From the NCBI GenBank assembly GCA_043228905.1, contig JBHGNT010000008.1, positions 3,472,001 through 3,536,000 on the forward strand: a stretch of 64,000 nt of DNA, written 5' to 3'. The position numbers and the translations under genes are program-made. Below are positions 3,481 through 60,371 of this stretch, piece after piece. The stretch comes from Azolla caroliniana (lineage: Eukaryota > Plantae > Polypodiophyta). Each line of letters starts with the position of its first letter. The first letter of the stretch is position 1. The notes beneath the pieces were generated by a model. The model was given only the letters and a program-made list of their open reading frames with translations. It was not told the DNA's origin and searched no databases.

Positions 3481-3555
3481 TGAAAATCCACCACTATGTG
3501 CGGATCGTGAGGATGAACCGCCAGGGTTATGGACTAGAAGTGTCATGATATGGCA

Positions 3556-3610
3556 AGACTCGAACCCGTGACCTTATGTGACATGGGTCGAACTCTTAAC
3601 CATTACACTA
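3556..3610 (-). promoter_or_regulatory. tRNA-type Pol III A/B-box promoter inside the chromovirus 5' LTR, antisense (second copy ~14344-14398)
   Basis: Minus strand TAGTGTAATGG (A box, 3610-3600) and GGTTCGAGTC (B box, 3566-3557), starts 44 nt apart as in tRNA genes; the cloverleaf does not fold. Confidence 0.6.
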
Positions 3611-3849
3611 TCTATTGTAATACATAGAATATTATTTTTATTTAAGTTTTAGAAAATTAATGTATATTCCAGATTTCTCTGGAACATTCTAGAAGCTTCA
3701 GGACTACTCTTGAGAACACTATAAAAGGAGGCACAAGGCATTATTTCGAACCAAATCGGTTCAACACCAGTCTTAAGCCTCCTAGCATTCCTTGTATATT
3801 CTTCTCACATAATATATCGCTGTCATCATCATTTTCTCTCCCTCGATCT

Positions 3850-3858
3850 CTCACTCAC

Positions 3859-3890
<32 letters not shown>

Positions 3891-6800
3891 TCTCTCTCTT
3901 TCTCTTAGCATTTTCTTTCTTTCTGTGCATCTGTTTCTCTCCCTCCATCATTATGTACGTTCTATAGCTCATTGGAAAGCTCTTTCAGAGAGCTTTCTAA
4001 CGAATGTTTATTTGCTGAATTTCGTTGCTGGAGTGAGGAGTTATGAGCATTTTTGTCTGCAACCCTCTTTGCCCCACGGCTCCTCAAACTCAATGTAGAT
4101 TTTGAAACCCTAAATCGATTGAAAGGTAGATTCTACTTCTTCTATCATTTTATTAATAGTAAATATGCCAAGAGGAGTAAAAGCCAATGATGATGTGATT
4201 GAAAGCCCAAACAATCAAATGCATACATTGTTAATGGAAAAGATCGCAACTATGTATATCTCATTGCAAGAGACAGTGATGCATATGCAAAGCGAATTGT
4301 ATGCTTGTAAGGAGAGGGAATTAACTCTTCACCATACACTGGAAATGCAAAAGTTAGAGATGAAAGCTTTGCGTGAAGAACTACATGCAATGAAGAACAT
4401 GACTATTCAAATGCAAGATAATAGGATGGAAGGCAAATGTCGAAATAAAATCTACAATTGAAGGGAAGGAAGACGTGATCATGACAAGGTGGAAAGATGT
4501 TCTCTTAAAAGAAACACCAAAAATCACGCAAAAACATCCTAATACCATGAATGTGTTAGATGTAAAGGAGCAATATGAAATCGAAAGAAGAAAGAATAAT
4601 ATTGTCATTAGAGGTATGCAAGAGAATGAAATAGAGAATGCATTATCTCTTGGACAAAATATTACGAAATTCTTTGAGGATCACTTTGCTATGCGAGATG
4701 TTATTGTATATGCCGCACATCGGGTTGGCAAAAAGCAACAAGAGGGAAAGACATCTGGAGCTATTATTTGTACAATCCCCAATGAAGGTAAAAGGGCAAT
4801 GATTCTAGATAGTAGTAAGGTGTACTTAAATGGGACAAGTTATTTTGTAACGGAGGATAGAACTCCACAAGAGCAAGAACGTAGAAGGCAAGCACATGCA
4901 CCACGAAAAGCAAATCAAAATGCATAGCAAGCAATGACCTATGGGACTATAAGTGCTTCACGTTTGAAAGTAATGTTTTGGAATTGTAGAGGATATCCAT
5001 GGAATAAGGGTTTAGGACTCAATGATGTAGCTCAAGGTATGGAAATTATATTTTTGGCTGAAACATGGGAGCATGAGGCAAAACGTATACCTACGATAGA
5101 CGATTACCTCATAAAATCGATATGGCCTCACTCCAAAGGGAATATTGGGCGTGCCGAGATAGCATGTATCTACCATGAGAGCTTAGATAATTCTATCAAA
5201 GTATGCAAATATGATGACTATAAGAGATACATATGGATAGAGGTTAATTTGGGGAAAGAGAAGTTGTATATAGTTGCATGTTACATTCCTCACAAAGACT
5301 CAAACTACTATAGTAGGTTTGGGTTAGATTGTGATGATCCTTTTATAGAGTTATGCCATGATATACTTTCATTTGAGAAGCTTGGTAAAGTTTTAATTAT
5401 AGGAGACTTCAATGCAAGAGTGGAAATTTCCAAAACGTGGAGAAATTTGAAGAAAATGTAGTAGAACATTGTCTATTGCATGACTTAGAGGATTGTGTCA
5501 TGTCAGATTATAGAAAACTTTTGATACATATGCTAAATTGCACAAACTTGATTATCCTAAATGGTATAAAGGCATTCCCATTGACAAATGTGCTCACATG
5601 TTTACCATCCTTGGGTGGAGGAAGTGTGGTTGATTATGCATTAATGTTGGCATGTGATCTATCATTGGTGAATGTGTTTAAAGTTGGTTCTCTATCTCCG
5701 GACTCAGACCACAGGCCATTGTACTTAGAGTTTGCAATTCCACATTCCACTAGATGTCGTGAAGTGAAAGATGAAAAGAGATGTATCATCCGACCGTGCC
5801 ACGAAAAAGCTAAGATGTATGCAAATGAAGTGGAGAACCATTTGTTAAATTTCTCTCTAAGCAACGCTGTTAAAGAAAATTGGCAACATTTGAAGGATAT
5901 AATCCTTAAGGTTGGATATCAATGGTTTAAGAGACATGTGGGTGGGCATAAGGTGTTTAATTTTCCATGTAATTCTTGGTTCGGATGTATGTAAGATGTA
6001 TCTCAAATGGTTTAAGTCCATAGAAGGGGGAATGAAAAGATTGTTGCATGGCACATATACAAGAAAGTAGTGAGGAGAAAAAGAAGAAGATATTTCCAAA
6101 TGCAAGAGATGAAAAAGAAAAACTTGTTTAAGCTCAAACCAAAATTAGCATGGGGACAACTCAAGGGTAAGAAAGAAGATGTGAAAGGTCACTTTACAAA
6201 TACAAGAAAGTAGTGAGGAGAAAAAGAAGAAGATATTTCCAAATGCAAGAGATGAAAAAGAAAAACTTGTTTAAGCTCAAACCAAAATTAGCATGGGGAC
6301 AACTCAAGGGTAAGAAAGAAGATGTGAAAGGTCACTTTACAAATGAAGAGATGCTAGACTATGTACAAAGGTTATATATGCATGAAGGTGTGGCTCCTAT
6401 GGTTGAGAAAATTGAAACTCCATGCACTACATGTATCGATATTGATGATGTCAATAAGGGAATAAAGAATATGGCAAGTGGGAAAGCAATAGATTCAACC
6501 TACGTCTCAAGTGAGCTTTTAAAATGGACAATGCCACACACTCGTCATTGGATAATGACAATTTTAGAGCAAGCTATAAAACAAGGATTTCCAAATGATT
6601 GGCTTATGAATTGGATTAAACCAATATTTAAAGGCGGAGATAAGAATCAAGTAGCAAATTATCGTACAATAATGGTGAGCTCAACTATTGCTAAATTATA
6701 TAGTACTACTATGGAGCAAAAGATAAGCACATGGGCTGAGAGTACAAGCAAAAGAGCACTTGGGCAAGCCGAATTTAGACCAAAACACTCCACCGTGGAT

Positions 6801-8482
6801 CATTAGGTCACATTAAGAGTAATCATGGAAGAGAGTCGACTACAAGGAAAAACACTTTATTGTTGTTTTGTTGATTTCAAGAAAGCTTTTGATACCATAC
6901 CACGAAGTGAGCTTTGGAATAGAATGGTAGACATTGACATGCCATTAGAGTACCTAGTTGTGGTTGCACGCCTATATGAACAAGTTAAATGCCAACTAAA
7001 AATGGATAGTGGATTCTCAAAGAGCTTTTTAAGTAACATGGGGGTCAAGCAAGGATGTCCACTATCACCCACACTCTTTGGCTTATGTATTGATAAATTA
7101 GAAGAAGTGGTGAATAAGGTTGCAAGAGAAGAAGGATGGAATGGCCCCAATTTGATGCAACATGTTATCTTATTGCTTCTATATGCAGATGATGTGGTAC
7201 TCTTCTCATATGATGTTGATAGTATGCAACATTTACTTGGGGTATTAGAAGAATTTTGCCATAGTAGTGGACTAGCAGTGAATGTGGAGAAAACAAAAAT
7301 GATGGTAGTGCAAACCATCCAACCTCATCATTACCCTATGCTCACATATAAAGGTGAACATATACAAGTTGTTAAAAGCTTTAAATATCTTGGTATTGAT
7401 GTACCTGCCACAAATAAATGGAGTGCATGCTTTGATTCTAGACTCCAAGCTAGTTGGAAATCATATTACCTTTTGGAGAACCAATGCAACCAAAGTGATA
7501 CTTGTGGATGGGAAGTAAAATTAATGTTGTTCAATGCCATGGTAACTCAAGTATTGCTTTATGGAGTAGAAGTATGGGGTGGCACCATCTCTCTTAATGC
7601 ATGGAACGAGATTGAGAAAATTCAAAAGATGTTTTTGAGGCAATTAGGAGTTAAATGCACTACCTCTTACCAGGTTATGCTCTTGGAAACGGGTGTTCGA
7701 CCCATAGAACTATTGGCACTCCAAAGAGTATATAAATACATTACAAAAGTCAAGAATATGCCGAATCATCGATTACCACATCTTTCTTGGAATGTTGGAT
7801 GTAAGCTACAAAAGAATCATAAAAGTTGACATAAAGAAATGGTTTAGAAGATGGGGTGTGGATGATCTTTTAGAGCTTTCAGGCAATGCTATGCAATATG
7901 TAATGATTGAGGAAAGGTTGGTGGAATCATTAAGGATGAAGTGGGAGGATGCTAAGAGGACAAAGCTAGAATACTACATTGCAAATGTCAACCCTAAATG
8001 TTGGTCTCAATATAAAGCAAGAATGTCTATTGATCGTATCCAACCTTATCTCATTACCAATATGAGTAGCAATGCTCGTAGAGCCCTTACACTACTTCGC
8101 ACTCGATCTCACAAGTTAGGTATTGAAGTTGCATCATGGTATCAAAATGTAACAAATTTGAAGACATGTAAAGTATGCAATGAAGGCATGGTAGAGGATG
8201 AATGTCACTTGCTCTTCACATGCTCGACATATAGTGCAATTCGTTCAAGATATGTTGACATACTAAGAGGGAGTGATAACTTAAGATCCATACTTAAGAC
8301 ACCACCTAGAAGGTTGAGCTCATATGTGTATGCTTTATTAACACATAGAGACTTTGTGCTTCAACATATGAATACCCCTTCTTAGGAAGGAGACATATAT
8401 CAAGAACACATGTATACTCTAGTCCCATAGGTCAAAATTGGCCTCTTTATGGACGATAAAAATTCTAATTCTAATTCTAATT
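3850..8482 (+). mobile_element. Near full-length LINE (non-LTR retrotransposon, RTE-X-like), degenerate
   Basis: ORF1 4165-4927, frameshifted (coiled coil then RRKNNIVIRG RRM-like motif). ORF2 4934-8385 in pieces: APE endonuclease (WNCRG, ETW, GDFNA, VDY, SDHRP), RT (GVKQGCPLSP, LLYADD, FKYLG) and C-terminal CKVC...ECHLLFTC. 3' tail (AATTCT)3 at 8461-8482. Sits in the (CT)n tract of the gypsy 5' LTR; the 5' boundary is approximate. Confidence 0.92.
6058..6343 (+). repeat. 143-bp perfect tandem duplication inside LINE ORF2
   Basis: tacaagaaagtagtgagg...gtcactttacaaa at 6058 and 6201; frameshifting length. Confidence 0.9.
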
Positions 8483-10165
8483 CCTTCTCTCGAGTGTTCT
8501 ACACCCTCTATTCCTCTTAGTACTAATTTATTCTCTGTCTCGGTACTATTCCTGACAGTTTGAATCGATTTTCCCTCCTTTCCTCTTCCTTTTATCTTCT
8601 TACATATCCCCTTTTTTCCGGTCTTCTTTCCGGTTTTCCTCATCTTCTTACCCCTTTTTTCCCTTCATACTAATCCTCTTATCCTCCCTAGCAAAATGGA
8701 AATTGTTAGCACTCAGGAATACCAATTTGTTTTCTCGAAGCTCCAGTGCTTAAAAGAGAAATTTGTAGCACTAGAACAAGAAAATCACCATTTGCTGGGG
8801 GATCTTCAACAAATAGCGCTGGAAAAACAACAACAACACGGGGAGCTGACATTACATGTACAACAACTTGAAGCGACTATTGTATCACTACAACAACAAG
8901 GATCAAGCACTCAAGGGATTCACAAAGAACCTAAGATCGGTCTTCCTGCAAAATTTGATGGGACCCAATCATAGTTTAGAGGTTTTCTGAATCAGGTACA
9001 TTTAGTGATTCAAATGCATCCTTCTCGATATCCCACCGATGCATCATGAGTGGGACTAGTAGGCACTCTACTTAGTGGCTCAACATTGGCATGGTTCGCT
9101 CCGTTGTTAGAAAAGGAATCTCCATTACTAAAAAAATTTGAAGAATTTATAAGGGAGTTTAAAACCTGTTTTGGAGATACTGACAGCATAAGGACAACAA
9201 TCAACAAAATCCGACGATTACGCCAAGGTGATTCTCTAGCCTCCGCATAGGCTGCAGATTTCCGCCTACTCGCCGCCGATATCCCTTGGGATGATCAAGC
9301 ATTGATGGAGCAATTTCGTTATGGTTTACGCAACAATGTCAAGGATTTACTCTTGACCTTCCCCAAAGAACCAAAGTCATTAACAGAATCAATCAGTCGC
9401 GCGGTGAGATGCGACAACCGCCTTTTCGAACGACATTTGGAACGGCAATTCCAGATGTCGAAGGCAAGATCAGAGCCCACCTACGCCTCAGTGGTAGCGA
9501 AACCTTTTCCGAGGGAGTCATATAATGCGTCTCCAGTGAATACTCCGACTCCGATGGAGATTGACACTACACGTCGTTGCGGACCATTATCGGAAAAAGA
9601 AAAGCAGCGATGTCGAGCAAATCGACTATGTCTTTATTGTGGTGGACCAGGGCATATTGCAGTAAATTATCCCTATAGGCCAAGAAGACAGGTAAGCCAA
9701 ATAGTTGCTAGTTCTAATTGTACTAAACCCGAGTCTATTTCAGTAGGAATATCTTATAGTCCTAATAGTACTAATAGCCGAAATCTAGCGAACAAATTTG
9801 ATGTCCTTAGTTAGTTAGAAGAAGAGTTAAACGACAAGTCTAGCCAAAATAGGAGCCGTTTGGTTGGACAGTCCTAGATCTGTGCAACCCATTAGTGGTT
9901 CCATTCCCTCTAAGCAAGTTAGCAATGTGTTCATAGCCCAAGTAACAATTAGTACTAAAAGTACCCCTCTAGTACGTGTCTTAACACTTCTAGATTCCGG
10001 AGCTACTTCTTGCTTCATGGATAGGAATTTTGCCCAAGCTCATCAGATCTCTCAAAAAACTCCCGTGTCCAGCCTTTGTAGTAGTCATTGATGGTCGTCC
10101 CATTGCTTCCGAAAATATCATAGAAGAGTCAGAGCCCGTTAATATTTTCCTAGATAATCTAGCAT

Positions 10166-11082
10166 TGTCGTGTGGTGCATGACACACATGCCAAGTGTCG
10201 GGATGTGCGCGTCACAAGTGCGGACAAGCACCGGGCCTCTATACGCTAGTGGTTATGGAGGATTGACTATGGGATTTCCGCGTCTACGGGTTGGTCGAAC
10301 GGGACCACCAAGGTCTTTGACCGAAGAGAATGAATCGGGTGAGTTGTGCCTGTAAGGAATTGGCCGTTTAGGTTTATTGTTAAGTCGTCCTTTGTTGTCA
10401 AAGACGCACCCGAACCCGACTCAACGGCACGGTGGATTGACGTGTAGGCAGTTGAAGTAACGCACTAATGTGGTTGAGAGTGTGTGAGAGAGAGAAACGA
10501 AAATTGAGGAAGTGTTTAAGATAGATAAATAGATAGACGGATTGAAATTCCAATTCTACGTTTGAACCCTTGACTTTAATTTAGAAAACCAAGACACATC
10601 ACCAATAAGATAACTAGGTTTTCTTATTAAAATATCTTGATTTAATCCATAGCTTGATTGCTTGATACATAGCTTGTTTGATTCATCGATTGATTTCCAC
10701 TTATATAGATGCCCCCATGCATATGTGCATGTGAGGGTGTAAGACATGCATACAATGCATGAAATGCATGCAATGCATGATGACCATACACCTCATCCAA
10801 GCTCTCATTATGAGCATTCATATGTGAAAAACATAATGATAGTCTAAAGAAATAACTTAGCCTAATGGTAAGTCAATTGTCTTCTATCTTGGAGGTGCAA
10901 GGTTCAATACTTGCACCCCTTCGTATGCTTGAAAATGCAAATAGGCTTTAGGTGTTCTCATTACATTTATATTTACAACATACTAACGTATGAGTGTAAC
11001 CATCACCCCTTTCATTCGTGTGCACATTACACCTTCTCGATTCCACACGATTTTCACACCGTTGCCGAAAATCTTCACGACA
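10166..11082 (-). mobile_element. Solo LTR of the Trp-primed gypsy family, inserted in the chromovirus protease
   Basis: Termini TGTCGTG...CACGACA; flanks GCAT/GCGT (4-bp TSD with one mismatch). Removing it restores FLDNLA-CVVSFNI. Shares blocks with the LTRs at 56614-57350 and 59711-60370. Confidence 0.85.
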
Positions 11083-14000
11083 GCGTGTGTAGTATCATTT
11101 AATATAATTAGTATCCCAGAACATCCCATTGTGTTAGGATTACCATAGTTCAAATTACATAACCCAGACATAGATTGGAGAACAAGAGAAATCCGGTATC
11201 GACAAGCCCGAGGATCTACTCATAAGATTGCAACCATTTCACTACATTAGTTGCGGGAAAAAGGATGCAAGGAAGAAATGTTTCTCTTCGCAATATCAGT
11301 AAAACCCTTCGACACCACTAAAGAGGAGTCCACCATTGAACTTCCAAAGAAGTATCATCATTATGCCGATGTGTTCAATAAAGTACAAGCCAATACGCTT
11401 CCTCACCATCGACCGTATGATTGCCCCATCGATTTACAATGGGAAAAGAGCCACCATGGGGACCGATCTACAATTTTTCACCAACCGAGTTAGAAGTCCT
11501 TCGAGCCTATATCAAGGAGAATTTGGAAACTGGTTTCATTCGGCATTCGAAATCTCCAGTCGGCGCACCCATTTTCTTTGTCAAGAAAAAGGATGGATCA
11601 CTTCATCTCGTTGTAGATTACAGTGGCTTGAATAAGGTCACCATCAGAAATAGGTATGCACTTCCCCTTATCTCAAGTCTTTTAGAACGGATCAATGGTG
11701 CAAGGTTCTTCACGAAGATCGACTTATGGGGAGCATAAAACCTCGTACGGATACGACATGGAGATGAATGGAAGACCGCGTTTCGCACCAGATATGGGCA
11801 CTTCGAGTATACGGTCATGCCGTTCGGCCTCATTAATGCGTCAGCAGTCTTCCAGCACATGGCAAATGTTATATTCCGAGATCTCTTAGATGTTTGTTTG
11901 ATCATCTATTTGGATGATCTATTAGGTTATTCCAAGACCCAAGAAGAGCATGATTCTCATGTACTATTAGTACTAAAACGATTTCGAGAACATGGTCTTT
12001 ATGCAAAGTTGGAAAAATGTAGTTTCGGGTGCAACCAGGTGGAATTTCTAGGCTATGTCATCTCCTCGGAAGGCATCTCCATGGATCCAACTAAGGTCAA
12101 AACGGTGGTAGAGTGGCAAACTCCGCGTTCGTTGCTAGATGTGCAATGCTTTTTAGGCTTTGCCAATTTCTACCGCAAGTTTATACAGGATTACTCAAAG
12201 TTTGTTCTGCCTCTCACACAACTTACTAAGAAGGGACAATCGTTCGTTTGGTCTGAAGAAGCAGACATGGATTTTGAGAATCTTAAGAAGGCATTTACAT
12301 CGGCTCCAATTCTAGCTCACGTTGATCCGGAAAAACCATTCATCATGGAAGCGAACGCGTCGGATTTCGCATTGGGTAGCATTCTGTCACAACAAGGTAA
12401 TGATGAAAAGCTACATCTTGTGGCTTTCCACTCATGCAAGTTTGACGCCGCCGAAATCAACTATGAAATCCATGATAAGGAGCTATTAGCAATAGTGGAC
12501 TCTTTTACGCAATGGAGGCATTTTCTAGAGGGATCCTCTCATCAAGTCACCGTATTCAGTGATCACAAAAACCTTGCCTACTTTCAGAATGCTTGTGTGT
12601 TAAATCGACGTCAAGCTCAGTGGGCCCAATTCCTCACGCGTTTCGACTTCAAAATTACATATCATCCGAGGAAGCACCAAGGGAAGGCAGATGCATTATC
12701 ACGGCGTTCATATCTAGCACCACGTCCTGGCGAGCCGGCTTTCGATAACCAAAAACAAGTAATCTTGGGACCGGCACGACTGCAAGCAACACAGGTCTTC
12801 GGCATGCCCTTGGATTCCGACGTTATCGATACCATACGTGAGGACTTGAAGACAGATGCTTTCGCCCAAGCAATTCTAGCACAAATTGATCCCTCTCGAG
12901 CATCTTGTTCACAGTCGCAACAACCAGGTACAGACTATCGACAATTCAAATATCATGATGGATTACTATTCTTTAAGAAACTGTTGTATGTTCCTAATGG
13001 TTCTTGCCGCCTTCGAACTGTCCAAAACTGTCATGACACATATACAACTAGGCATTTTGGTAGTACTAAGACATTAGATTTAGTACAAAGATCATTCTGG
13101 TTGCCCTGTATGCGACAATTTGTCGAAGATTTTGTTCGGACTTGTGATACATGTTGCAGAGCAAAAATCGCAAGGCATCATCGATATGGTTTATTAGAAC
13201 CATTACCAATTCCAAGCAAGCCGTGGCAATCCATTGCTCTAGATTTCATCACAGATCTTCCAATCTCAAAGGGATTCAATGCGATTTTAACAGTAGTAGA
13301 TCGATATACGAAGATGGCTCATTTCCTACCATGTACTAAGGAAATCTCCAGTAAAGAAACCGCCGAAATTGTCATGCGTGAAGTATGTCAGCATCATGGC
13401 CTTCCTGATAATATCATCAACGATCGTGGACCCCAGTTTGTCTCGAAATTCTGGAAGCACCTGTTTAAAATGCTCAATGTCACTTGTAACCTCTCCTCCA
13501 TCTACCACCCGCAAATCGACGGCCAAGCAGAACGAACAAATCAAACGTTGGAGCAGTATCTTTTGGTGCTTTCTAAGCTATCATCAAGATGACTGGGCAG
13601 ATATTCTCCACTTCGCCGAATTTGCCTATAATAACTCTATCCACTCATCGACTAAAGTTACGCCATTTTATGCTTACACGAGTTGTCACCCCCAGTGGTG
13701 TGTATTTGAAACCCCAGAGTTACCCACAAATCCTTGCGCAAAGGATTGTTTGGAGCATTTACGCAAGATACAAGCAGATTTATCTACTCATCTACAACAA
13801 GCTCAACAAACACACAAGGTTTACGCGGATCGTCATTGGTTCCATCCAGTTTTAACATTGGAGATCAGGTATGACTACTACGACACATCAAGACTTCTCG
13901 CCCATGCAAGAAGTTGGATTATCGGCGATTAGGTCCTTTCCGTATTATCGGAAAGATTAATGGTGTCTCTTTTCGTCTCAATCTACCCCTGTAACGTCGC

Positions 14001-14328
14001 ATACATCCGGTGTTTCATAGTTCTCTCCTCAAACCCTATCAAGACAACACCATCTTAAGACGTATTCCACAACCTCCACCCCCGATCGAACTTGAGGATG
14101 GACCTGAGTAGGAGGTTGCCACCATCCTCTATTCCAAGATTGTTCACAACAAGCTCTACTATTTAGTCGATTGGCTAGGATATAGTCCCAGTGAGCGTAC
14201 TTGGGAACCAATAGAGAATGTGACCAATGCTCGTGCTCTTCTTGAAGACTTCAATCGTCAATATCCAGATAAACCGGGTCCTCAATACAAAACGACTCGT
14301 GAGACTCGTCGTTTTAAAGGGGGGATAG

Positions 14329-14749
14329 TGTCATGATATGGCAAGACTCAAACCCATGACCTTATGTTACATGGGTCGAGCTCTTGACCATTACACTATC
14401 TATTATAATACATAAGATATTATTTTTATTTAAGTTTTACTATAGAAAATTAATGTATATTCCAGATTTCTCTGGAACATTCTAGAAGCTTCAGGATTAT
14501 TCCTGAGAACACTATAAAAGGAGGCACAATGCATTATTTCGAACCAAATCTGTTCAACACCAGTCTTAAGCCTCCTAGCCTTCCTTGTATATTCTTCTCA
14601 CATAATATATCGTTGTCATCATCATTCTCTCTCTCTCTCTCTCTCTCTCTCCCCCCTTCTCTCGAGTGTTCTACACCCTCAATTCCTCTTAGTACTAATA
14701 TTCCTCTCTTAGTACTAATTTCTTCTCTGTCTCGGTACTATTCCTGACA
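14329..14749 (+). repeat. 3' LTR of the chromovirus
   Basis: Direct repeat of 3541-3845 plus 8483-8557, about 5-6% diverged by eye; preceded by a PPT; contains TATAAAA. Confidence 0.93.
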
Positions 14750-15867
14750 AAATTTGCTTCAACCCCGCTCCCCATTAATCTTCGGCTTTCTCAGCAAGAC
14801 TGCCCTACATCCGGTTCGAATGCATCAATAGTTTGCTCCTTGATGTACGCAATGGTCGCGACACGGCCTGATATTGCTCACGCCATAGGAGTCGTCAATA
14901 GATTCATGCACAGCCCAGGTCGATCGCATTGGAATGCAGTCAAGCATGTATTCAGATAATTGGTGGGCACACAAGACCTTGGCATCCTCTTCAGTCCGAA
15001 AAAGAACTTAGGCATACTCGATTACACCGACTCGAACTTTGCCAGTGGTGTGGACAATCGAAAGTCAACAACCTGATACTGCTTCAAATTCAGCAATGGA
15101 GCAATTTACACCGACTCGAACTTTGCCAGTGGTGTGGACAATCGAAAGTCAACAACCTGATACTGCTTCAAATTCAGCAATGGAGCAATTTCGTGGAAGT
15201 TGAAACTTCAGGATTGCACGGTCACTTCAACGAGTGTAGTTGAATACGTAGCCGCGTTCGACTCGGCAAAAGAGGCTCTATGGTTCGGTCGGTTGGCATG
15301 TACGTTTCTACAAGCCAACCCCAATTCAACCCAGTTGTCTACAATGACAGTCAGGGAATTGGTGCTCTGCCGAAGAATCTGGTTCATCACAACACCTCTA
15401 AGCATATTGACATTTGGTATCACTTTGTTCGGGACTGTGTAACTTCAGGGAAGCTCGACCTCAAGAAGATCTCCACGACTGACAACATATCAGACGGAGT
15501 GATGAAGTGTCTCGCAATTGACCGATTTCAGTCACTTCGGCACCATGTGGGCTTAAGGAGTATTCAGTCCGATCGATTCGTACAACAAAGATAGCTTCGA
15601 GCACTCAACCTTGACAACCGAACCAGTTTATGCACTCAAACCAACTGATTCGGCCTTTGTTTCCTTTCGGTCGTCATTGATTCGACTACAAGCCAATCTA
15701 CTTAAGAATCTCTTAAAGTTTGTATAACCTATACATCTTGTTCTATATTATAGGTTTCTCCATAATGTATACGCCCATTACGGGGGAGTGTCAAATATGG
15801 GTTTCTAATGGTCATATTCACACTGTCCCTTGGACAAACTAGGTTACCTAGCTCATAAGGGGGTTAC

Positions 15868-18800
15868 TGTTGAAGACAAGGCCGTCAATGCGGAAGATCA
15901 AGTAGCATTCGAATGGGGTTGAGTACCTGCGTATAACAGTTTCCAAGATCTTGCACAGAGATAGAGAGAGAGAGAGAGAGGAGGCACAAAAGACTCTTTC
16001 TATTCAATAGAAACAAATAATACAACCAACCTTACAAAAAGGTTACTAGGTCACTTTATATAGTGCCAAACTTAGGGCAACTACCATTTATGCTAATTAC
16101 ACAAATGGCCCAAACTTGAGCTATACAAAGGGATAGTGTGAATACGTCCATTATACACTTGTATTCGACACTCCCCCGTAATGGGCGTATACATGGGTTA
16201 TCTAAGATTACAGGTATAAACCTAGGTTCTCGGACATATCAGTTTTGTTCGAGTCGGCAGGGTCCGAAGGCAGAAGGCCGGACTGGTCGGGTCGGAAGAG
16301 TTGAAGTCGATCATTAAGGAACTGATGTCGGTTGTCTGAAACCATCCTGCGCTGTGTCCGGCTCTAACCGGACTGGTTTGTCGTTACGCCCATCTGATGC
16401 CGAAGGGACCGAAAACGGTCTGCCGAAAGACACTTGGTCATTCCATCTGCGACATTGTCGGTTGTGGCTATTTTCTCTAGACCGATTTTCCCTGAAATGA
16501 CGCAGTCCCGAACGAAGTGATATCGAACGTCGATATGTTTGGAGGCGTTGTGGTGAACCGGATTTTTCGACAAGGCAACAGCACCTTGACTGTCGCTATA
16601 GACAACTGGGGCCGAGTCATGGTCGACTTGTCGAAACGTGTGCGCCAGCCGGCCAAGCCACAAAGCTTCTTTTGCAGCGTCGGACGCAGCTACATATTCT
16701 GCTTCGGTCGTTGAGGTCGCTGTGCACTCCTGAAGTTTCGACTTCCATGAAATTGCTCCATTGCCGAATTTGAAGCAGTATCCGGTTGTTGATTTCCGAC
16801 TGTCTATACTGCCGGCGAAGTCCGAGTCGGTGTAACCGACAACGCCCGAGGTCGAGTTCGGACCGAAAAGAATGCCGTGGTCTTTTGTGCCAGCCAGATA
16901 TTTGAACACATGCTTGACTGCGTTCCAATGCGATCGGCCAGGATTGTGCATAAATCTGCTAACGACTCCTACGGCATGAGAGATATCAGGCCGTGTCGCG
17001 ACCATCAGGTACATAAGGGAGCCGACTGCCGGTGCATACGGTACCGACTTCATATCTTCCCCCTCCGGACCGGATGTCGGGCAGTCTCGCTGAGAGAGCC
17101 GAAGATTCATGGGGAGCGGGGTTGAAGCAGATTTGGCTGATTGCATGTTGAAGCGTTCCAAGACACGTCCGATATAGTCGGTCTGAGACAAAAAAAGATG
17201 TCGTTTGTCGCGATGCCGACTAATCTTCATGCCAAGTATGTGTCGTGCCGGACCGAGGTCCTTCATGGCAAACTTCAACCGCAATTGCCGAATGAGATCG
17301 GCAAGTTCGCCCGCGTGGCGTCCAGAAATTAGCATGTCGTCCACGTAAATGATGAGGAAGATGGGTGATCCATCTTGAGCTGTGTTGGTAAAAAGACAAT
17401 GGTCCTCATCGCTTTTGGAGAAGCCGATCGATTGGATGAAGTCGTCGAACTTCTTGTACCATTGTCGCGGTGCCTGTTTGAGGCCGTATAGACTCTTCCT
17501 AAGTCGGCAGACTAGATGTTCTTGGCCAGTTGCCACGAAGCCTTTTGGCTGCTCCATATAAATTTCCTCTTCAAGATCACCATGGAGGAAGGCTGTTTTG
17601 ACATCTAGCTGAATCAGCTCCAAGTTGTCGGTTGCCACTACGCCGAGTAGAAAACGAAGGGTTGTCATTTTCACCACTGGTGAAAAAATCTCGTCGAAGT
17701 CGACGCCATATTCTTGTCGGAAGCCCTTCGCAACTAATCTGGCCTTGTACTTTGGGGTGGTCGAATCAGACGTCTCTTTTAGTCGATAAACCCACTTGCA
17801 AGGAAGAGCACGTCGATTCTTAGGTAATTCGACCAGATCCCAAGTCTTGTTTGCCCGAATGGAGTGCATTTCCGACTCCATCGCCAGATGCCAGGTGGCT
17901 GAATCAACAGATGTCGATGCTTCTTCGTAAGACGTCGGTTCGCCGGCGTCAGTGAAGAAAATTCCAGGAGAATACGTCTCCGGAGGTTGCGACAGTCTCT
18001 CGGATCGTCGAGGTATAATTGGACTGGTCGTATCGGGTATCGAGGTCGGATGGTCCGAAAGCGAATTATTCTGCTGTGCCGAGTCAGAGTTGTCCGAGTC
18101 GGTAGTGTAAGGTTCAGCTACCCGTGAAGCTGACCGTGTGTTAGGAGCGGGGCCTTCTTGAAGGGTCGGCACATCGGAAAATGTTACCCTTCGGACTTCG
18201 ATCGGTGTTTCGACTGATGGATTCATAGCCGACTCGTTGAACACAACGTCCGAACTTCGAACGATTTGTCTGCGTTCGGGGTCCCAGAGTCGGTATCCCA
18301 TTTCGCCGTCTGATCCATATCCAAGGAAAATGCATTTCCTGGACCGAGGTGCAAGTTTTCGGCGATCATCTTTCGGAATAAGGGCGTACGCCTCGCATCC
18401 GAAGATCCTCAGCTTGTCGTAATTCGGCTTACTGCCGATCCATAGTTCCTGAGGAATTTGAAGTCCTAGAGGTCTGCTTGGCGACATATTGATTATGTGT
18501 ACTGCCGTGAGTAGAGCCTCTGCCCAGAAGCCATCCGACAGTCTGGAGTGTTGGAGCATGGAAACTATCCGTTCTTGGATTGTCCGATTCATGCGTTCTG
18601 CAATCCCGTTTTGCTCCGGACTGTGTGGTGCCGTAAATTCACGTCGGATGCCGCGTTGTCGGCAGAATTTGACGAATTCTTCTGATTTGAACTCTCCCCC
18701 ATTGTCGGTCCGAAAGCATTTCAGTTTTCGGTCAGTTTGATTTTCTACCATAGCGAGCCAATCGGAGAAGATCGAGAAGACACGATCTTTGGTGCGAATT

Positions 18801-21218
18801 GGATAAGCCCACACCTTTCGAGTCGAATCGTCAATAAAACTGACGAAGTAAGAGGCACCGCCGAGAGACTGATGCGGCATTGGGCCACAGACGTCTGAGT
18901 GGACTAAATCGAGAGGTCTCGTTTCTCTTGGTGCTGATGTCGGGTGTGATGCGGCTGCTTGTTTGCCATACTGGCAATGTTCGCAGAATTGATGGTCCGA
19001 GAAGGAGAGTTTAGGGATGTATCCGGCTCTAGATAGGTGCGTAATGCCGGCCTTGCTGAGGTGTCCTAATCTTCTGTGCCATAGTGATGACACAGGAATA
19101 TCCACCAAAAACAGGTTACCCTCTCTAAGCGTAACATGTAACGGATACAGTGAGTGTATCTTGGGTCCTCTAGCAAGCAGGAGGTTCCCCCTGTGGAGTG
19201 TCCACCCTCCCGAAGAAAAACCGGCACGAATGCCGTCTTCGTCTAGTTGTCTGACTGAGATCAATGGCCTTGAGAGCTCGGGTACATGTCGGACATTGTG
19301 AAGTACAAGTGTAGAGCCACCTGCAAGGTTGAGCTCTACTGTGCCGATTCCAATGATGTCACAGTGTTGCGAGTTGCCGACTCGAACTGAGTCGGAGTGA
19401 CGGATCGTATATTGCCGAAATTGGGATCGATGAGGAGTCACGTGAAATGACGCGCCCGAATCTAAGAGCCATGTGCTCGATTCTTCAGTCGTGAGCAGAA
19501 CTTCTGATTCGACTGGATTTTCGATTGATAGTATATTCGGGTCGTTTGGTAGCACATCAGCTGAGAAGCTGACGTAATTGATCTCCTCATGCCGGCCACT
19601 CTTCTTGTCTGATTTCTGAGACTTGTCGTTCTTGTTCTTGAGTGCGCGGCAGTCGGCTTTGATGTGTCCGGGTTTCTTGCAATAGTTGCAGATTCGATTA
19701 TCCCGTGACTGGCTCCGTCTTCGCTGATTGTTCGGCTGCCGTGAGGAATCTCTTCCTCGTATGTTCGATCGTTCTGTCGAACCTTGTACTACATAAGCGT
19801 CGTCTGTTGAGTCTTTGGCGAAAGACTTTCTCCGAGCTGCTTCGGTCAGGATTGCGCTCGTGACTTTGGAGTATTTAACAGCCGTGGTTGACGCGTTGCA
19901 CACGGTTGTGACGAAAGTTTCCCATGATGAGGGAAGGCTGCTCATGAGTATCATTGCTCTGAGTTCATCCTCGATTGCCGTCCCCTGAGATGAGATTTGG
20001 GAGCTTATGCTTTCGTACTCATTGAGATGTGCTTGAACCGAATCTGATTCTTTCATCCGCAAGTTGTAGAGGCGCCGAATCAGAAACATCTTCGTTGCAG
20101 CGACCTTCTTTTCGTAGGTGTCCGACAGTGTTTTCCACAGTTCGAATGCTGTCGTACACGATTGCACCGTAAAGTATACCGATTCCGATAGGTGCGTCCG
20201 AATCGTGGCGCGGACGATTCTGTCCAGCTTCTGCCACTCAATTGGTTTGTATCCTTCTGGAGGTTCTTCATTTTCGATGGGATCGATTTGCCCCTTGACT
20301 ATGAGATAGTCCTGCATTTGCTCCTTCCAGAAGTTGAAGTTCGATCCATCGAACTTTCGTAGACTCATTTCTGACGAGCCGGATGTTGATGTCATGACTC
20401 TGCCCTAAGTCGGCTACGAACTTTGGTGAAGTGCAGCGGTTTGGCCCACTCAGTGTCGTTCTAGCCGAAGTTGGACACAAGTGATGTCGATTACGGAGAA
20501 TCGGGGATTTGGTTCGGATTGACTACCGACAACTGTCTTAGTCGAGTTGAACCTAGATTTAACGATCCGACAGTACTTCAAGCCGATTCGGTTTCGGTTG
20601 ACTGCAACGGTGAGAGCAATGGAACCGACTGGTCCTTCCGATTATTGTCCAATCGAATGAAACACGAACTGGGGTTGTCCTTGAAGTCGTCGTTGTGCAG
20701 GAAGCCCACCTCAAGCAGTTACGATCAAGGAAGTAGAGTACAGCCGACTGGTTTACTCCGAGTGATGATCTAACGCAGCGAGATTCAAGCTTGTGTTTGC
20801 CTACTTTCTTCTCTTTTTCTTCGAATGACGCAGGAAACCGAATGTTGTGCAGGCTGAGACGACGGCCGACAGCGGGTTGAGGAACCGAGTACTGTGCAGG
20901 CTCTGATACCAGATGTTGAAGACAAGGCCGTCAATGCGGAAGATCAAGTAGCATTCGAATGGGGTTGAGTACCTGCGTATAACAGTTTCCAAGATCTTGC
21001 ACAGAGATAGAGAGAGAGAGAGAGAGAGGAGGCACAAAAGACTCTTTCTATTCAATAGAAACAAATAATACAACCAACCTTACAAAAAGGTTACTAGGTC
21101 ACTTTATATAGTGCCAAACTTAGGGCAACTACCATTTATGCTAATTACACAAATGGCCCAAACTTGAGCTATACAAAGGGATAGTGTGAATACGTCCATT
21201 ATACACTTGTATTCGACA
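15868..21218 (-). mobile_element. Intact, very young Ty1/copia LTR retrotransposon (element D, Tnt1/Tork-like)
   Basis: LTRs 15868-16170 and 20914-21218 look identical except for one AG unit; perfect TSD GTTAC (15863-15867, 21219-21223); PBS TGGTATCAGAGCC (20899-20911); PPT from 16171; uninterrupted ORF. Confidence 0.98.
16364..20395 (-). CDS. Copia Gag-Pol polyprotein (Gag, zinc knuckle, protease, integrase, RT, RNase H), 1343 aa
   Basis: CNYCKKPGHIKADC; WLLDSGASFH; LWHRRLGH; HSDVCGP/RTDNGGEF/PEQNGIAERMN; QLDVKTAFLHG; IYVDDML; KHIDVRYHFVRD. Confidence 0.97.
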   Translation of the reverse strand: MTSTSGSSEMSLRKFDGSNFNFWKEQMQDYLIVKGQIDPIENEEPPEGYKPIEWQKLDRIVRATIRTHLSESVYFTVQSCTTAFELWKTLSDTYEKKVAATKMFLIRRLYNLRMKESDSVQAHLNEYESISSQISSQGTAIEDELRAMILMSSLPSSWETFVTTVCNASTTAVKYSKVTSAILTEAARRKSFAKDSTDDAYVVQGSTERSNIRGRDSSRQPNNQRRRSQSRDNRICNYCKKPGHIKADCRALKNKNDKSQKSDKKSGRHEEINYVSFSADVLPNDPNILSIENPVESEVLLTTEESSTWLLDSGASFHVTPHRSQFRQYTIRHSDSVRVGNSQHCDIIGIGTVELNLAGGSTLVLHNVRHVPELSRPLISVRQLDEDGIRAGFSSGGWTLHRGNLLLARGPKIHSLYPLHVTLREGNLFLVDIPVSSLWHRRLGHLSKAGITHLSRAGYIPKLSFSDHQFCEHCQYGKQAAASHPTSAPRETRPLDLVHSDVCGPMPHQSLGGASYFVSFIDDSTRKVWAYPIRTKDRVFSIFSDWLAMVENQTDRKLKCFRTDNGGEFKSEEFVKFCRQRGIRREFTAPHSPEQNGIAERMNRTIQERIVSMLQHSRLSDGFWAEALLTAVHIINMSPSRPLGLQIPQELWIGSKPNYDKLRIFGCEAYALIPKDDRRKLAPRSRKCIFLGYGSDGEMGYRLWDPERRQIVRSSDVVFNESAMNPSVETPIEVRRVTFSDVPTLQEGPAPNTRSASRVAEPYTTDSDNSDSAQQNNSLSDHPTSIPDTTSPIIPRRSERLSQPPETYSPGIFFTDAGEPTSYEEASTSVDSATWHLAMESEMHSIRANKTWDLVELPKNRRALPCKWVYRLKETSDSTTPKYKARLVAKGFRQEYGVDFDEIFSPVVKMTTLRFLLGVVATDNLELIQLDVKTAFLHGDLEEEIYMEQPKGFVATGQEHLVCRLRKSLYGLKQAPRQWYKKFDDFIQSIGFSKSDEDHCLFTNTAQDGSPIFLIIYVDDMLISGRHAGELADLIRQLRLKFAMKDLGPARHILGMKISRHRDKRHLFLSQTDYIGRVLERFNMQSAKSASTPLPMNLRLSQRDCPTSGPEGEDMKSVPYAPAVGSLMYLMVATRPDISHAVGVVSRFMHNPGRSHWNAVKHVFKYLAGTKDHGILFGPNSTSGVVGYTDSDFAGSIDSRKSTTGYCFKFGNGAISWKSKLQECTATSTTEAEYVAASDAAKEALWLGRLAHTFRQVDHDSAPVVYSDSQGAVALSKNPVHHNASKHIDVRYHFVRDCVISGKIGLEKIATTDNVADGMTKCLSADRFRSLRHQMGVTTNQSG

Positions 21219-24647: not shown

Positions 24648-27005
24648 ATGGTGGCGTCTGCCGCTGGCGACGGCGTCGTTCCGCCTCCCACCGCGGAGGC
24701 GGCGCCGCCTAATCCTCCTCCGCCTCCGCCTCCGCCTCCTTCCCATGTCTCGCCCTCCGCTACCGCAAGCCCCGCCTCTACCTCTTCCTCTTCCTCTTCT
24801 TCTTCTTCTTCTTCTTCATCTTCTTCTTCCTCCACCGACGTCGACGCCTCCAATTCTCCTGCCACTTCTCCCTTGAATCCCTACCACCAGATCCACCCCT
24901 TCCCGCCGCCGCCGCCGCCGCCGCCGCTTCACCTCCCCCAGCAGCGCCTCCCCTCCCTAAACCTCTCCCCCACCACTACCACTACCACTACCACTACCGC
25001 CGCCGTTCCTCCTCCTCCTCCTCCGCCGCCGCCGCCGCCGCCTCCTCCCTCTGACCGCCACTTCCGAGACGACTGCTGGAGCGAAGACGCCACCGTCGCC
25101 CTCATCCAAGCCTGGGGCGACCGCTACCTGGAGCTCAACCGCGGCAACCTCAAGCAGAAGCACTGGCGAGACGTCGCCGATTCCGTCAATAACCGCTCCT
25201 CCAACTCCAACTCCAACTCCAACTCCTCCTCTAAACCGCCCAAGACGGATGTGCAGTGCAAGAACCGGCTGGACACGCTCAAGAAGAAGTACAAGATCGA
25301 GAAGAGCAAGATCGTGATGGGCGGCACCCCCAGCAAATGGCCCTTCTTTGACCGCCTCGATGACCTCATCGGCCCCTCCAAGAAGCCGAAGCTCGCGGCG
25401 CTTGTCGCTGGGAAGGTCCGCCAGATCTCTGCCTCTGCATCTGCATCTGCATCTGCTGTCGCTAGCAACCGGCCATTGGACGAAGATCTAAAGCCTTTGC
25501 CTCTCTTGCTTCCTGCACCGCCGCCGCCGCCGCTGCCCATCAGAGCTAACCCTATTTCTGCCGCCCCTGCCCCTAACACCAACACAGAAACCCCCCCCAA
25601 ATCCAAAGCCGACCACAGGTCCACCCACACCATGTCGCCTCCCCCAGCGCCTGCACCTCCTGGCAGAGAAGAGAATTATAATGGCGGCAAGAGATTGCGC
25701 AAGAAGAAGAGAATCGCAACTGCCCGGTTCTGCGAGGAGGAAGAGGAGGAAGAAGAAGAAGAAGAAGAAGAAGAAGAAGAAGAAGGAGAAGGAGAAGGAG
25801 AAGAAGGAGAATACTCGAGTTTCAGGGAATTGGCTGCTTCCATCATCAAATTCGCAGAGGTATATGAGAGAGTCGAAACGAAGAAGCAGAAACAAATGGT
25901 AGAACTCGAGAAACAGAGGATGGAATTTACGAAAGACCTCGAGATTCAACGCCTGCAACTCTTTATGCAAACGCAGGTGGAGCTGGCTAAGCTCAAGCAT
26001 AGCAACAACAAACACAGCAACAGCCACAATACTGGTAGGCACATTTCTCTCTCTGTCAATACATATCTGTATATACCTGGCCATCAAAACCCTGTAATGT
26101 CAAACATGTTGGAAGGATTGTGCTATGTTAATGCCTAACCATCAAACTGCCGTAATGTCGAACATGTTGGAAGGATTTTGCTATGTTAACATCTAGCCAT
26201 CAAAACCCTGTATTGTCAAACATGTTGGAAGGATTGTGCTGTCTTATTGCCTAGCCATCAGAACCCTTTAATGTCGAACATGTTGGAAGGATTGTGCTAT
26301 GTTAACATCTAACCATCACAACCCTGTAATGTCGAACATGTTGGAAGGATTTTGCTATGTTAACACCTAACCATCACAACCCTGTAATGTCGAACATGTT
26401 GGAAGGATTGTGCTATGTTAACATCTAGCCATCACAACCTTGTGATTTAATGTCAAAATTGTTGGAAAGCACGATATATATTATAACCAATTGCGAGATT
26501 AGAACTTGGGTGCTCGCATGGCTCTCATGCTATGGTGTAAACCACGAAGCAAGTAACCGGAGACAGAGTGAAAGAAAGGGATAAGTCTTAAGATGTAGAA
26601 TCCCCAATCAATTGTATTGATTTAAAACAAGAGAGAACTCTTATGCAAAGAGGGGGTGAGGACATGGGTTCTCTATAGAAGCGAATTCTGCTATACTTAT
26701 AAGATTACAATGTAGAGAAACATGAGAGGGACTAAGTTTATGTCTATCTTGCAAAATGGGCAGCACTGTGTCATAAAAACCCTCTTTGTGAGCTTCATCA
26801 TATCTCTCTCCACTTTATCTGTTATTGTTGTTGCTTTATCATAGGTCTTTAATTCGCTTACCTTTTCAGAGTAAAATTTCTTTTGCATTTTGTTTTAGCT
26901 ACAGCTTAGCTTGTTGTAAAAAGATAATTTTATTGCGTAACTATGTTTAGCCTTCCTGACGGAATTCTTCTCTCATGCATCATCATTGCAGAACACTACC
27001 GTTGA
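24648..27005 (+). CDS. Trihelix transcription factor, ASIL/SIP1 clade (~466 aa); exons 24648-26034 and 26992-27005
   Basis: Myb/SANT-like trihelix domain [19 protein letters not shown]...KQKHWRDVA...[14 protein letters not shown]...[10 protein letters not shown] and C-terminal coiled coil [17 protein letters not shown]...[10 protein letters not shown] donor at 26035; the TTGCAG acceptor at 26991 gives an in-phase EHYR* end. Confidence 0.9.
26081..26469 (+). repeat. 58-bp minisatellite, about 6.6 copies, in the trihelix intron
   Basis: Unit CCATCAAAACCCTGTAATGTCGAACATGTTGGAAGGATTGTGCTATGTTAACATCTAA starts at 26081, 26139, 26197, 26255, 26313, 26371 and 26429. Confidence 0.95.
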
Positions 27006-36140: not shown

Positions 36141-36792
36141 CAGAGTCTCCTGCTTTCTGCTGCTCTCCCCTTTCTCCCTGCTGCACTTCTAACACTAGAT
36201 CGCCCCCATATCTGCATTGGGTTCGCCTCATTTTCCCTTCTATTTCTTACCCCATTTCAAGACCTCGAGGTAAAGAGCGTTTTCCTTCCTTTTCTTCTGT
36301 AGCCGGAACGATTTACTTTGTTTTGACAACAGATGGAAAAAAAACAAATGCAATGTGATTCTATTTATTTATCTGTTATTTTGCATCAAGCATAGCCTCA
36401 TACATTTTGCTGTGAACACAGTTGGACCTCCTTTCTCCACAGTTTGGATGTGTATTGTGCAAAGATTGTGGAAAGGCATCAAACTCACAGTTCCTTCTCG
36501 AAATGCTTTTTCTTCAGAGATTTCCTTTTGTGTGTGGGTATAAGTCAGTGAGAATTACATGCTTTTCAACCATATTGGAATCATCCATAATGCTCACCTA
36601 TATATGTTGATAATTTGTGACTCAGAAACTAGGGTTGGTTTGATCCAATTGAATGGGTTCACGGGGAGCTTTTCCTTATATCTGAGAAAGAATCACATGT
36701 AGTTCAAGCACATTGGATTCTTCTGAGATAATGCTCGATAATAACAATCATATTTGAATCACTCAAACTAGGTTTGTTTCGATTTAGTAGAA

Positions 36793-43652: not shown

Positions 43653-47897
<4,245 letters not shown>

Positions 47898-59600: not shown

Positions 59601-60370
59601 TACCTTCTCTCAAAAATTCCATCATCATTTTCGACATTGCCTTCATGAGATATTCCTCGTCCATCTTCATCCTCCCCTACCGCTCTTCACGTCGGGTTCA
59701 CCACTTAAGATGTCGAGGAAATCCTCGCGTGTTTGCGAAATGAAGCGGGACCATCGATGTTTTTTAGCACCGGAAGGATTCGATGTTTTTTAGCACCGGA
59801 AGGATTCGATGTTTTTTAGCAGCGTAAGCGAGAAAGTATTTAAGATAGATAGATGGATGAACAGAGAGAGAGTGAGATTGAGATAGAGATTGAACCCTTG
59901 ACTTTAGGTTTACGAGACAAGATACATCACCATTAGGATAACTCAGATCTAGTTTCTTTTTTTACTTACATCACTTCCCTCCCTATACAAGCCCAACTAT
60001 AGGCTTTTATAGGTCTCTCCATGCAAAAACCATGGGCTAAACCACGGGCTAAAACTGTGGGCTGAAACCATGGGCTAAAACCACGAGTTGAAACCATGGG
60101 CTAAAACCATGGTTTTGTGCCCACGGTTTCTATGTATTTGCTTCCTACAAAATACTGAATATGAAAAGAAAATATACAAATTCTATAACACTCAGTAGTG
60201 GCTTTAGTGGTAAGTTAATTTGTTTCTTATCTTGGTGGTGCAATGTTCAAGCCTTGCTTCAACCCTTATGTATGCACTTAAATGTTGCTAGGCTTTAGTC
60301 TTATTTTTATATTTACAATTGAGCACACATCACACGTGCACATGTTTTAACTTTACATCTAGCTTTTCTG
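56614..60370 (-). mobile_element. Non-autonomous (gag-only) Ty3/gypsy-type element with a tRNA-Trp PBS; LTR-like ends 56614-57350 and 59711-~60370, the latter cut by another insertion
   Basis: PBS TGGTGAACCCGACGTGAA (59703-59686) matches the 3' end of plant tRNA-Trp; gag-like ORFs 59296-59670 and 58306-59274 start right after it; no pol motifs. The LTRs share TTTTATAGGTCT..CCATGC, AAAACCATGGGCT repeats and a tRNA-like block. Confidence 0.75.
58306..59670 (-). pseudogene. Frameshifted gag-like ORF of the Trp-primed element
   Basis: FDGGIVQNFLKAYNAEM...WVSFEEALREVY and FIEFECRFAQLS resemble retrotransposon capsid motifs; split between frames. Confidence 0.6.
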
Positions 60371-60371
60371 T

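Follow-up and report, generated by a model that had tools for sequence, protein, structure and literature searches.

An antisense tRNA-derived unit with A and B boxes in the outer U3 of a Tcn1-like chromovirus from Azolla caroliniana, a candidate TFIIIC site

Introduction

RNA polymerase III (Pol III) promoters in long terminal repeats (LTRs) have been described from small non-autonomous elements, in which they drive the element itself. Three groups of short TRIMs without coding capacity, Helenus, Ajax and Cassandra, have a Pol III promoter that is believed or shown to be their driver (PMC10886601). Helenus TRIMs (TRIMp3) carry tRNA-derived sequence in both LTRs that is conserved around boxes A and B without being a functional tRNA. 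They measure 311-1263 bp, are known in a lycophyte (Helenus-1_SMo from Selaginella, whose unit is in the sense orientation and would drive the element), and have been proposed to originate by SINE insertion into an LTR (Kojima 2024, PMC10886601). The element described here likewise bears what appears to be tRNA-derived sequence in both LTRs, but it is about 5.7 kb long with gag-pol rather than non-autonomous and below ~1 kb, its unit lies antisense at the outer LTR edge, and it retains a TATA-type Pol II promoter, unlike Helenus with its tRNA-derived unit as driver. Cassandra TRIMs also have a Pol III internal promoter in plant LTRs, those of ferns included; they differ in being 5S-derived, non-autonomous and shown to start their own transcript (PMC10886601), none of which applies to the present element.

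Among autonomous retroelements, foamy viruses and bovine leukemia virus combine a Pol III unit with a hairpin: the foamy virus miRNA cassettes lie in U3, as in bovine foamy virus (PMC7693620), and A/B-box-like motifs occur in the miRNA cluster of bovine leukemia virus (PMC12498455). Those cassettes have demonstrated short transcripts and terminators, whereas the LTR studied here lacks a terminator and its predicted hairpin is limited to one family. A different mode is offered by TFIIIC-bound tRNA genes and ETC/COC insulators, at which B-box-bound TFIIIC organizes chromatin; this insulation has been shown in yeasts for host loci (PMC4370569), whereas here the box lies within a plant LTR and its binding by TFIIIC is predicted.

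The carrier resembles the Tcn1 clade of chromoviruses, which have a chromodomain integrase, no tRNA primer-binding site and predicted self-priming, and whose member SM-Tcn1 is 5704 bp long with 440-bp LTRs, similar to the ~5.7 kb and ~420-bp LTRs here (PMC6317226, PMC2864245). The accessible sections of these two papers report Tcn1 solely from mosses and lycophytes and mention no tRNA-like segment in U3; a PCR survey (Novikova 2010, PMC2864245) found no Tcn1 in ferns. In titles and abstract beginnings of papers listed by full-text searches (subscription papers and Repbase entries being outside this scope) we found no description of tRNA-type boxes lying antisense in the LTRs of autonomous elements from plants. 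Given that scope, and since Kojima, who analysed TRIMs alone, remarks that 'not a few' Repbase LTRs show partial tRNA similarity (PMC10886601), an earlier notice that is unpublished or confined to a database is likely. What would be new relative to Helenus and Cassandra is an antisense unit in an element of autonomous type, acting, if at all, as a carried TFIIIC site.

A Tcn1-like chromovirus carries the unit

The stretch of DNA analysed (the window) comprises 64,000 nucleotides of an A. caroliniana contig. The carrier element has the following parts.

3541-14749, plus strand: whole element, ends TGTCA...TGACA, ~5.7 kb without its two inserts
3541..8557, plus strand: 5' LTR; 3541-3856 and 8483-8557 match the 3' LTR, with a LINE between them
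3857..8482, plus strand: L1-type LINE in the 5' LTR, endonuclease and reverse transcriptase (RT) remnants, left boundary approximate
3720..3725, plus strand: TATA box of the LTR Pol II promoter, oriented opposite to the A box and 110 bp further inward
3753..3766, plus strand: predicted self-primer where R starts, with 11 of 14 positions complementary to 8558-8571
8558..8571, plus strand: primer-binding site of the self-priming type, no TGG tRNA site
8697..14340, plus strand: degraded gag-pol with protease, RT, RNase H, integrase and a chromodomain remnant, interrupted by stops and frameshifts
14316..14328, plus strand: polypurine tract (PPT), abutting the 3' LTR
14329..14749, plus strand: 3' LTR, 421 bp

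The order protease-RT-RNase H-integrase with a C-terminal chromodomain places the element among the chromoviruses of the Ty3/gypsy group. Its pol is closest to chromodomain-bearing proteins (59-73%), the next named matches being fungal or animal, and in the window copy two positions of the chromodomain aromatic cage are aromatic and one falls on a stop codon. The putative self-primer lies ~33 nt past the TATA box, and its pairing co-varies in relatives (12 of 14 positions in L004 and 11 of 14 in L007), so that a complementarity of 11-12 of 14 in the window, L004 and L007 accompanies the lack of a tRNA primer site, as in Tcn1. The chromovirus is thus predicted to self-prime, in which case a tRNA would not be needed for its priming. 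The occurrence of such a Tcn1-like, apparently self-priming chromovirus at very high copy in a fern is an observation in its own right.

No target-site duplication is found at the element ends (3530-3540 versus 14750-14760), and the surrounding copia element is missing ~115 codons at the chromovirus site, which together suggest deletion or recombination between two insertions; the two LTRs may therefore stem from different insertions. For the same reasons we dropped dating by LTR divergence (K2P 0.066). The LINE in the 5' LTR is near full-length, landed in a microsatellite of the LTR, and bears a tandem duplication of 143 bp (6053-6338) as well as an (AATTCT)n tail.

Both LTRs contain an antisense A/B-box unit that is not a tRNA gene

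The features of the unit are listed below.

3610-3600, minus strand: A box of the 5' LTR, reads TAGTGTAATGG
3566-3557, minus strand: B box of the 5' LTR, reads GGTTCGAGTC
3574-3570, minus strand: AGGTC (tRNA positions 44-48), preceding the 5' LTR B box
3545..3617, minus strand: tRNA-like unit of the 5' LTR, equal to tRNA positions 1-73 by register
14333..14405, minus strand: tRNA-like unit of the 3' LTR, with its A box at 14398-14388 and its B box at 14354-14345
14289..14292, minus strand: first T4 past the 3' unit, at a distance of 107-110 nt from where the A box starts

The initial annotation had described an antisense A box and B box, separated by 33 nt and 44 nt apart start to start, in the outer ~70 bp of both LTRs and directed outward, and this arrangement is borne out: both boxes lie within the outer 70 bp of U3, antisense to the chromovirus, and point toward the LTR edge at 3541. 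The T4 and the single B-box change that it reported for the 3' copy are likewise present, the change falling at tRNA position 56 and representing a minority state in the family. A scan with the general A- and B-box consensus found the strict pattern once in the 64-kb window, against 0.01 expected from 100 composition-matched local Markov simulations; with one B-box mismatch permitted it found three matches against 0.11 expected from the same simulations. The box cores TRGCY/YGG and GGTTC given in PMC10886601 agree with that consensus. Consensus A and B boxes at a spacing within 30-60 nt are the hallmark of a type 2 Pol III internal promoter, which the unit thus matches. A looser SINE-type pattern (31 matches against 10 expected in the window) was too unspecific and was dropped.

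The unit itself is not a tRNA gene. In the 5' LTR the acceptor stem is unpaired, the T stem is paired at four of five positions and the anticodon stem at two of five; ARAGORN reported no tRNA gene in the window or in 60 of the 78 metagenome loci considered below, and an Rfam search returned nothing at E<=10 for 401 and 88 bases of the region. We also built tRNA models from 87 of 223 viral tRNAs, chosen by box-like patterns, whose E-values are accordingly not independent evidence for the boxes. The sequence-only profile, a model biased toward such boxes, matches 3550-3612, and the best window match of the covariance model is partly out of register. Under default filters the sequence-only model gave no matches in 81 loci; with nhmmer --max it gave seven matches of at least 8 bits, compared with one in reversed sequence. 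For isotype assignment, no close tRNA was found among the 223 viral tRNAs compared, a set without plant tRNAs.

A reading as a primer-binding-like site (plus-strand TGG followed by a tRNA complement) was ruled out, the distance from B box to CCA-like triplet being 3 nt only. Signs of a SINE insertion (body, tail or its own target-site duplication) are absent at the unit, and the LTR ends 16 nt beyond the B box; a truncated SINE is a possible source.

Two further sequence features were noted near the unit. An 8-bp inverted repeat, AAAACGAC...GTCGTTTT, at 14289-14315 just before the PPT supplies the T4, and its PPT-proximal arm alone is found in L004. The motif TTGTAATAC, similar to the far-upstream polyadenylation elements of plants, is found at 3612-3627 in the window, on the inward side of the unit, and at 4250-4267 in L004, within the spacer of the unit; it may add plus-strand constraint.

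Variation within the family increases inward from the LTR terminus

Family copies were sampled as contigs of public runs (organism labels A-E; 7 of 22 listed runs, one used twice) aligned to the 3' LTR. The main variant table covers organisms A (n=2043 contigs), D (n=1230) and E (n=614) and includes all variants of at least 4%. Frequencies are summed contig depth, which is not copy number, and rare variants are dropped in contigs. Two aligned contigs come from a run guessed to be RNA and carry no strand or expression information. The number of matching contigs in A, D and E upholds the earlier view that the unit belongs to the replicated element, and the canonical B box accounts for 88-92% of summed depth in these organisms.

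We counted a site as variable if variants reached at least 10% in any run, excluding two changes private to the window. Variable sites number 0/11 at the terminus, 0/10 in the B box, 5/33 between the boxes, 5/11 in the A box and 10/17 in the inner flank, a steady climb inward from the LTR end. The expectation that the boxes would be more conserved than neighbouring U3 within the family therefore holds for the B box when compared with the inner flank. The terminal 30 nt as a whole, however, are as invariant as the B box, and the A box is variable at almost half of its sites. The main A-box variants in A, D and E affect position 9, a purine site (58-92% of depth), and the free position 12; at G18-G19 and in the B box no variant reaches 4% in these organisms, barring the window's own change. 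Organism D has variants of 13-27% at the conserved A-box positions 8, 10 and 14. Loose ends of contigs reveal subfamilies with a D loop one base shorter or with other A-box letters, and one subfamily with another terminal stretch followed by an unchanged B box.

Two relatives carry the unit and four do not

Relatives were collected as 78 metagenome loci (scanned with an alignment of 12 pol proteins), three viral loci and 78 genome-collection loci; neither an LTR 19-mer nor the pol of L004 had a match in viral contigs. L004, which is 70% identical to the window element in pol DNA and has an intact gag-pol with an open pol of 1235 aa and the full domain set, carries an antisense unit at ~30 nt from the edge of its LTR; the spacer measures 32 nt, AGGTC is shared with the window unit, and the B box is compatible with the consensus. 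The window and L004 units are colinear (36/54 identical, a single 1-nt gap) and agree in box spacing within 1 nt; in L004, 20 inserted nt separate the B box from the LTR edge, and the alignment of the inner U3 is rich in gaps. L006, at 59% protein identity and with an LTR that has no blastn match to the window LTR, has a unit at the same LTR location with a D stem paired at 4/4 positions, AGGTC, a T loop and 33-nt spacing; its boxes are degenerate, and the covariance model did not report it. The claim of tRNA derivation is strengthened by these comparisons, with the A box, the D-loop GG-T-A, AGGTC, the T loop and a spacing of 32-33 nt recurring in three families.

The combined motif AGGTC-NNN-RGTTCRA has three matches in 957,912 bases (160 sequences), one each in the window, L004 and L006, every one antisense in outer U3, and none in the reversed or complemented control; R at position 52 was permitted only after L006 had been inspected. 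Against L004, the boxes are identical at 7/10 (B, against the 3' copy) and 8/11 (A) positions, not above flanking U3 (49/70, 33/45), with a lower 14/25 in the spacer. Of the five differences that separate the boxes of the 5' LTR from those of L004, four are at degenerate positions, and 11/12 near-invariant box bases are kept (binomial 0.02-0.09 at a background divergence of 40-30%). Departures at conserved positions occur at 10 in L004 and at 14 and 52 in L006. The ~110-nt antisense RNA considered by the initial annotation is not supported as a general feature, as the first T4 lies at +107 in the window, +126 in L006 and +1081 in L004.

The unit is not present in the LTRs of L005, L007, L008 and L043, so that two of the six relatives with visible outer U3 carry it (L335, whose LTR ends before outer U3, was left out of this count); it is thus dispensable in the clade. 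In an RT-RNase H tree of 51 rows, made of relatives and a few fungal proteins without named Tcn1 references, L004 is grouped with the window element and L006 has the unit-less L007 as its sister, which implies two gains or one old gain with losses. Presence of the unit is not clustered on this tree (two changes; 229 of 500 shuffles were as low). As a side observation, dozens of prokaryote-assembly contigs (L335-L412) encode eukaryote-type gypsy polyproteins, most likely through contamination of bins.

Further tRNA-like units occur in a pol linker and in LTRs of an unrelated lineage

L004:999-1069 and L004:6322-6391, minus strand: L004 linker units, antisense and in frame in the protease-RT linker of intact pol
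10166..11082, minus strand: solo LTR of an unrelated lineage in the protease region of the window element, 4-bp duplication with one mismatch
10858-10915 (plus strand) and ~10562-10605 (minus strand): tRNA-like units of the solo LTR

L004 consists of two tandem copies, each with one linker unit, and these two units ranked first and third in a covariance model search of 13 loci. In the unit at L004:999-1069 the D stem is paired and the acceptor stem partly paired. The L004 linker is 22-27 residues longer than that of the window family, which is without the insert, and the two units are identical at 44/71 positions compared with 87% for the flanking coding DNA.

The unrelated lineage, on the minus strand, comprises three LTRs that are 68-73% identical (10166-11082, ~56665-57357 and 59710-60426). 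Antisense A/B-box units lie in the U3 of all three (10858, 57175 and 60200), and two of the three also have sense units past the TATA box, indicating that antisense orientation is no strict rule. This lineage also has a primer site of the tRNA type (near 59690) and a gag-like ORF that gives no Pfam match.

The unit of the window family folds as a rod

14340..14391, minus strand: predicted rod hairpin of the 3' LTR, arms of 21 and 19 nt, loop of ~12 nt
~3552-3603, minus strand: the same predicted hairpin in the 5' LTR

The minus strand of the unit is predicted to form a single rod and no cloverleaf, with fold z-scores of -3.67 (3' LTR) and -2.33 (5' LTR), the plus strand being weaker (-1.50). 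Sites varying at 10% or more number 1/40 in the arms and 4/12 in the loop (Fisher p 0.008), and the four listed arm variants (14350, 14377, 14378 and 14386) all preserve pairing; the loop-closing pair is disrupted in about one-third of depth. The rod is absent from the relatives with the unit (fold z -1.32 in L004 and 0.92 in L006), and 32 of 214 real tRNAs also give a single-rod fold.

Other features of the window

A copia element at 15868-21218 (minus strand) has a 1346-aa open polyprotein and LTRs that are 99% identical, indicating recent insertion. Another copia LTR lies at 2165-2580, with a degraded minus-strand polyprotein leftwards and a methionine-type primer site near 2150. A trihelix (Myb/SANT-like) gene at 24648-26138, whose best named matches are from Adiantum and Ceratopteris (73-78%), is followed by a 58-bp tandem array (26018-26481), and kinase exons occur at 36772 and P450 exons at 46469.

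Discussion

Sequence comparison gives good support to a tRNA ancestry of the unit. Our best reading of its present state, which we could as readily see fall as stand, is that it is a retained TFIIIC/Pol III element placed divergently to the LTR's Pol II promoter. Counting for retention are the concentration of box substitutions relative to L004 on degenerate positions and the recurrence of antisense units in the L004 linker and in the unrelated LTR lineage. Counting against it, the invariance of the B box is confounded with that of the terminus and of the hairpin arms, box identity to L004 is no higher than that of flanking U3, and most of the relatives compared lack the unit. These last two facts would also follow if a tRNA or SINE head had been captured once or twice and simply persisted as a neutral relic beside the integrase attachment site, the main rival explanation, which we think rather unlikely yet take seriously. 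A relic would fit the steady inward increase of variation, the absence of conserved stems and terminator, and the faster divergence of the L004 linker units than of the coding DNA around them; the near-perfect hairpin could then reflect quasi-palindrome correction, which takes place during reverse transcription. It fits less well with box changes that favour degenerate positions, with a box spacing held within 1 nt even though L004 gained 20 nt between terminus and B box, with the subfamily that retains the B box behind a different terminal stretch, and with survival of the motif in L006, whose LTR is otherwise beyond blastn similarity.

The hairpin could instead be the product that matters, with an antisense Pol III transcript folding into a rod with 19-21 nt arms that is diced to small RNAs tuning the element or the host. 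The strand-specific fold, the quiet arms beside a variable loop and the pairing-preserving arm variants speak for such a cassette, which we nevertheless judge improbable: neither L004 nor L006 has the rod, the loop-closing pair is often broken, real tRNAs too can fold as single rods, the LTR has no internal terminator, and the C-to-T changes that preserve G-U pairs coincide with the most frequent form of decay of methylated DNA. In yeast Ty3, a bipartite tRNA site on the genomic RNA provides a model for another function, in which the start of U3, complementary to tRNA D and T loops, would anneal a cellular tRNA or form a stem-loop for packaging or plus-strand priming. All Tcn1-like units are antisense, so that the genomic RNA would indeed bear the tRNA complement directly after the PPT; we strongly doubt this account, however, as the element is predicted to self-prime, the stems differ between families so that no single tRNA would pair along the unit, and the viral tRNA set (which holds no plant tRNAs) contained no close match. 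That the boxes merely arose by chance from an inverted repeat in U3 is scarcely credible. The empty ARAGORN and Rfam searches and the imperfect palindrome of the region would agree with it, but the simulations expect 0.01 such patterns per window, the combined motif recurs in three families of the clade with empty controls, and relatives without the palindrome retain the boxes, L006 with a fully paired D stem; L004 and L006 have thus largely refuted chance already.

For the retained TFIIIC/Pol III element, we envisage that a tRNA or SINE head was captured antisense in the outer 70 bp of U3. Exactly this position and orientation would result from a template switch that directly follows plus-strand priming at the PPT, or from antisense insertion of a SINE. 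TFIIIC would then bind the A and B boxes. By the textbook geometry of TFIIIC and TFIIIB, TFIIIB/TBP would be loaded onto the AT-rich stretch of ~3620-3660 just inward of the unit, at a distance of 60-100 bp from the TATA box (3720) of the Pol II promoter. Pol III factors positioned back to back with the LTR promoter could hold it open or bound it against flanking heterochromatin, either of which would favour the element's own transcription. Pol III transcripts, if made, would lead out of the LTR; we regard them as a by-product because their end is not conserved.

An antisense, outward-directed unit cannot drive a coding element that is transcribed by Pol II; if maintained, it would have another job, most likely at the chromatin of the LTR promoter. 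A wider proposal, offered tentatively and in our view clearly less likely to be right than wrong, is that autonomous LTR elements of non-seed plants have repeatedly captured antisense Pol III promoters of tRNA type (three chromovirus families with the unit in outer U3, a pol linker and an unrelated U3) and use the host's TFIIIC/Pol III as an anti-silencing or boundary device, with each of many solo LTRs seeding an outward Pol III site. If true, this would give plant retrotransposons a cis-acting way to resist silencing, and a very high-copy family such as the present one would scatter TFIIIC sites and outward transcription starts genome-wide.
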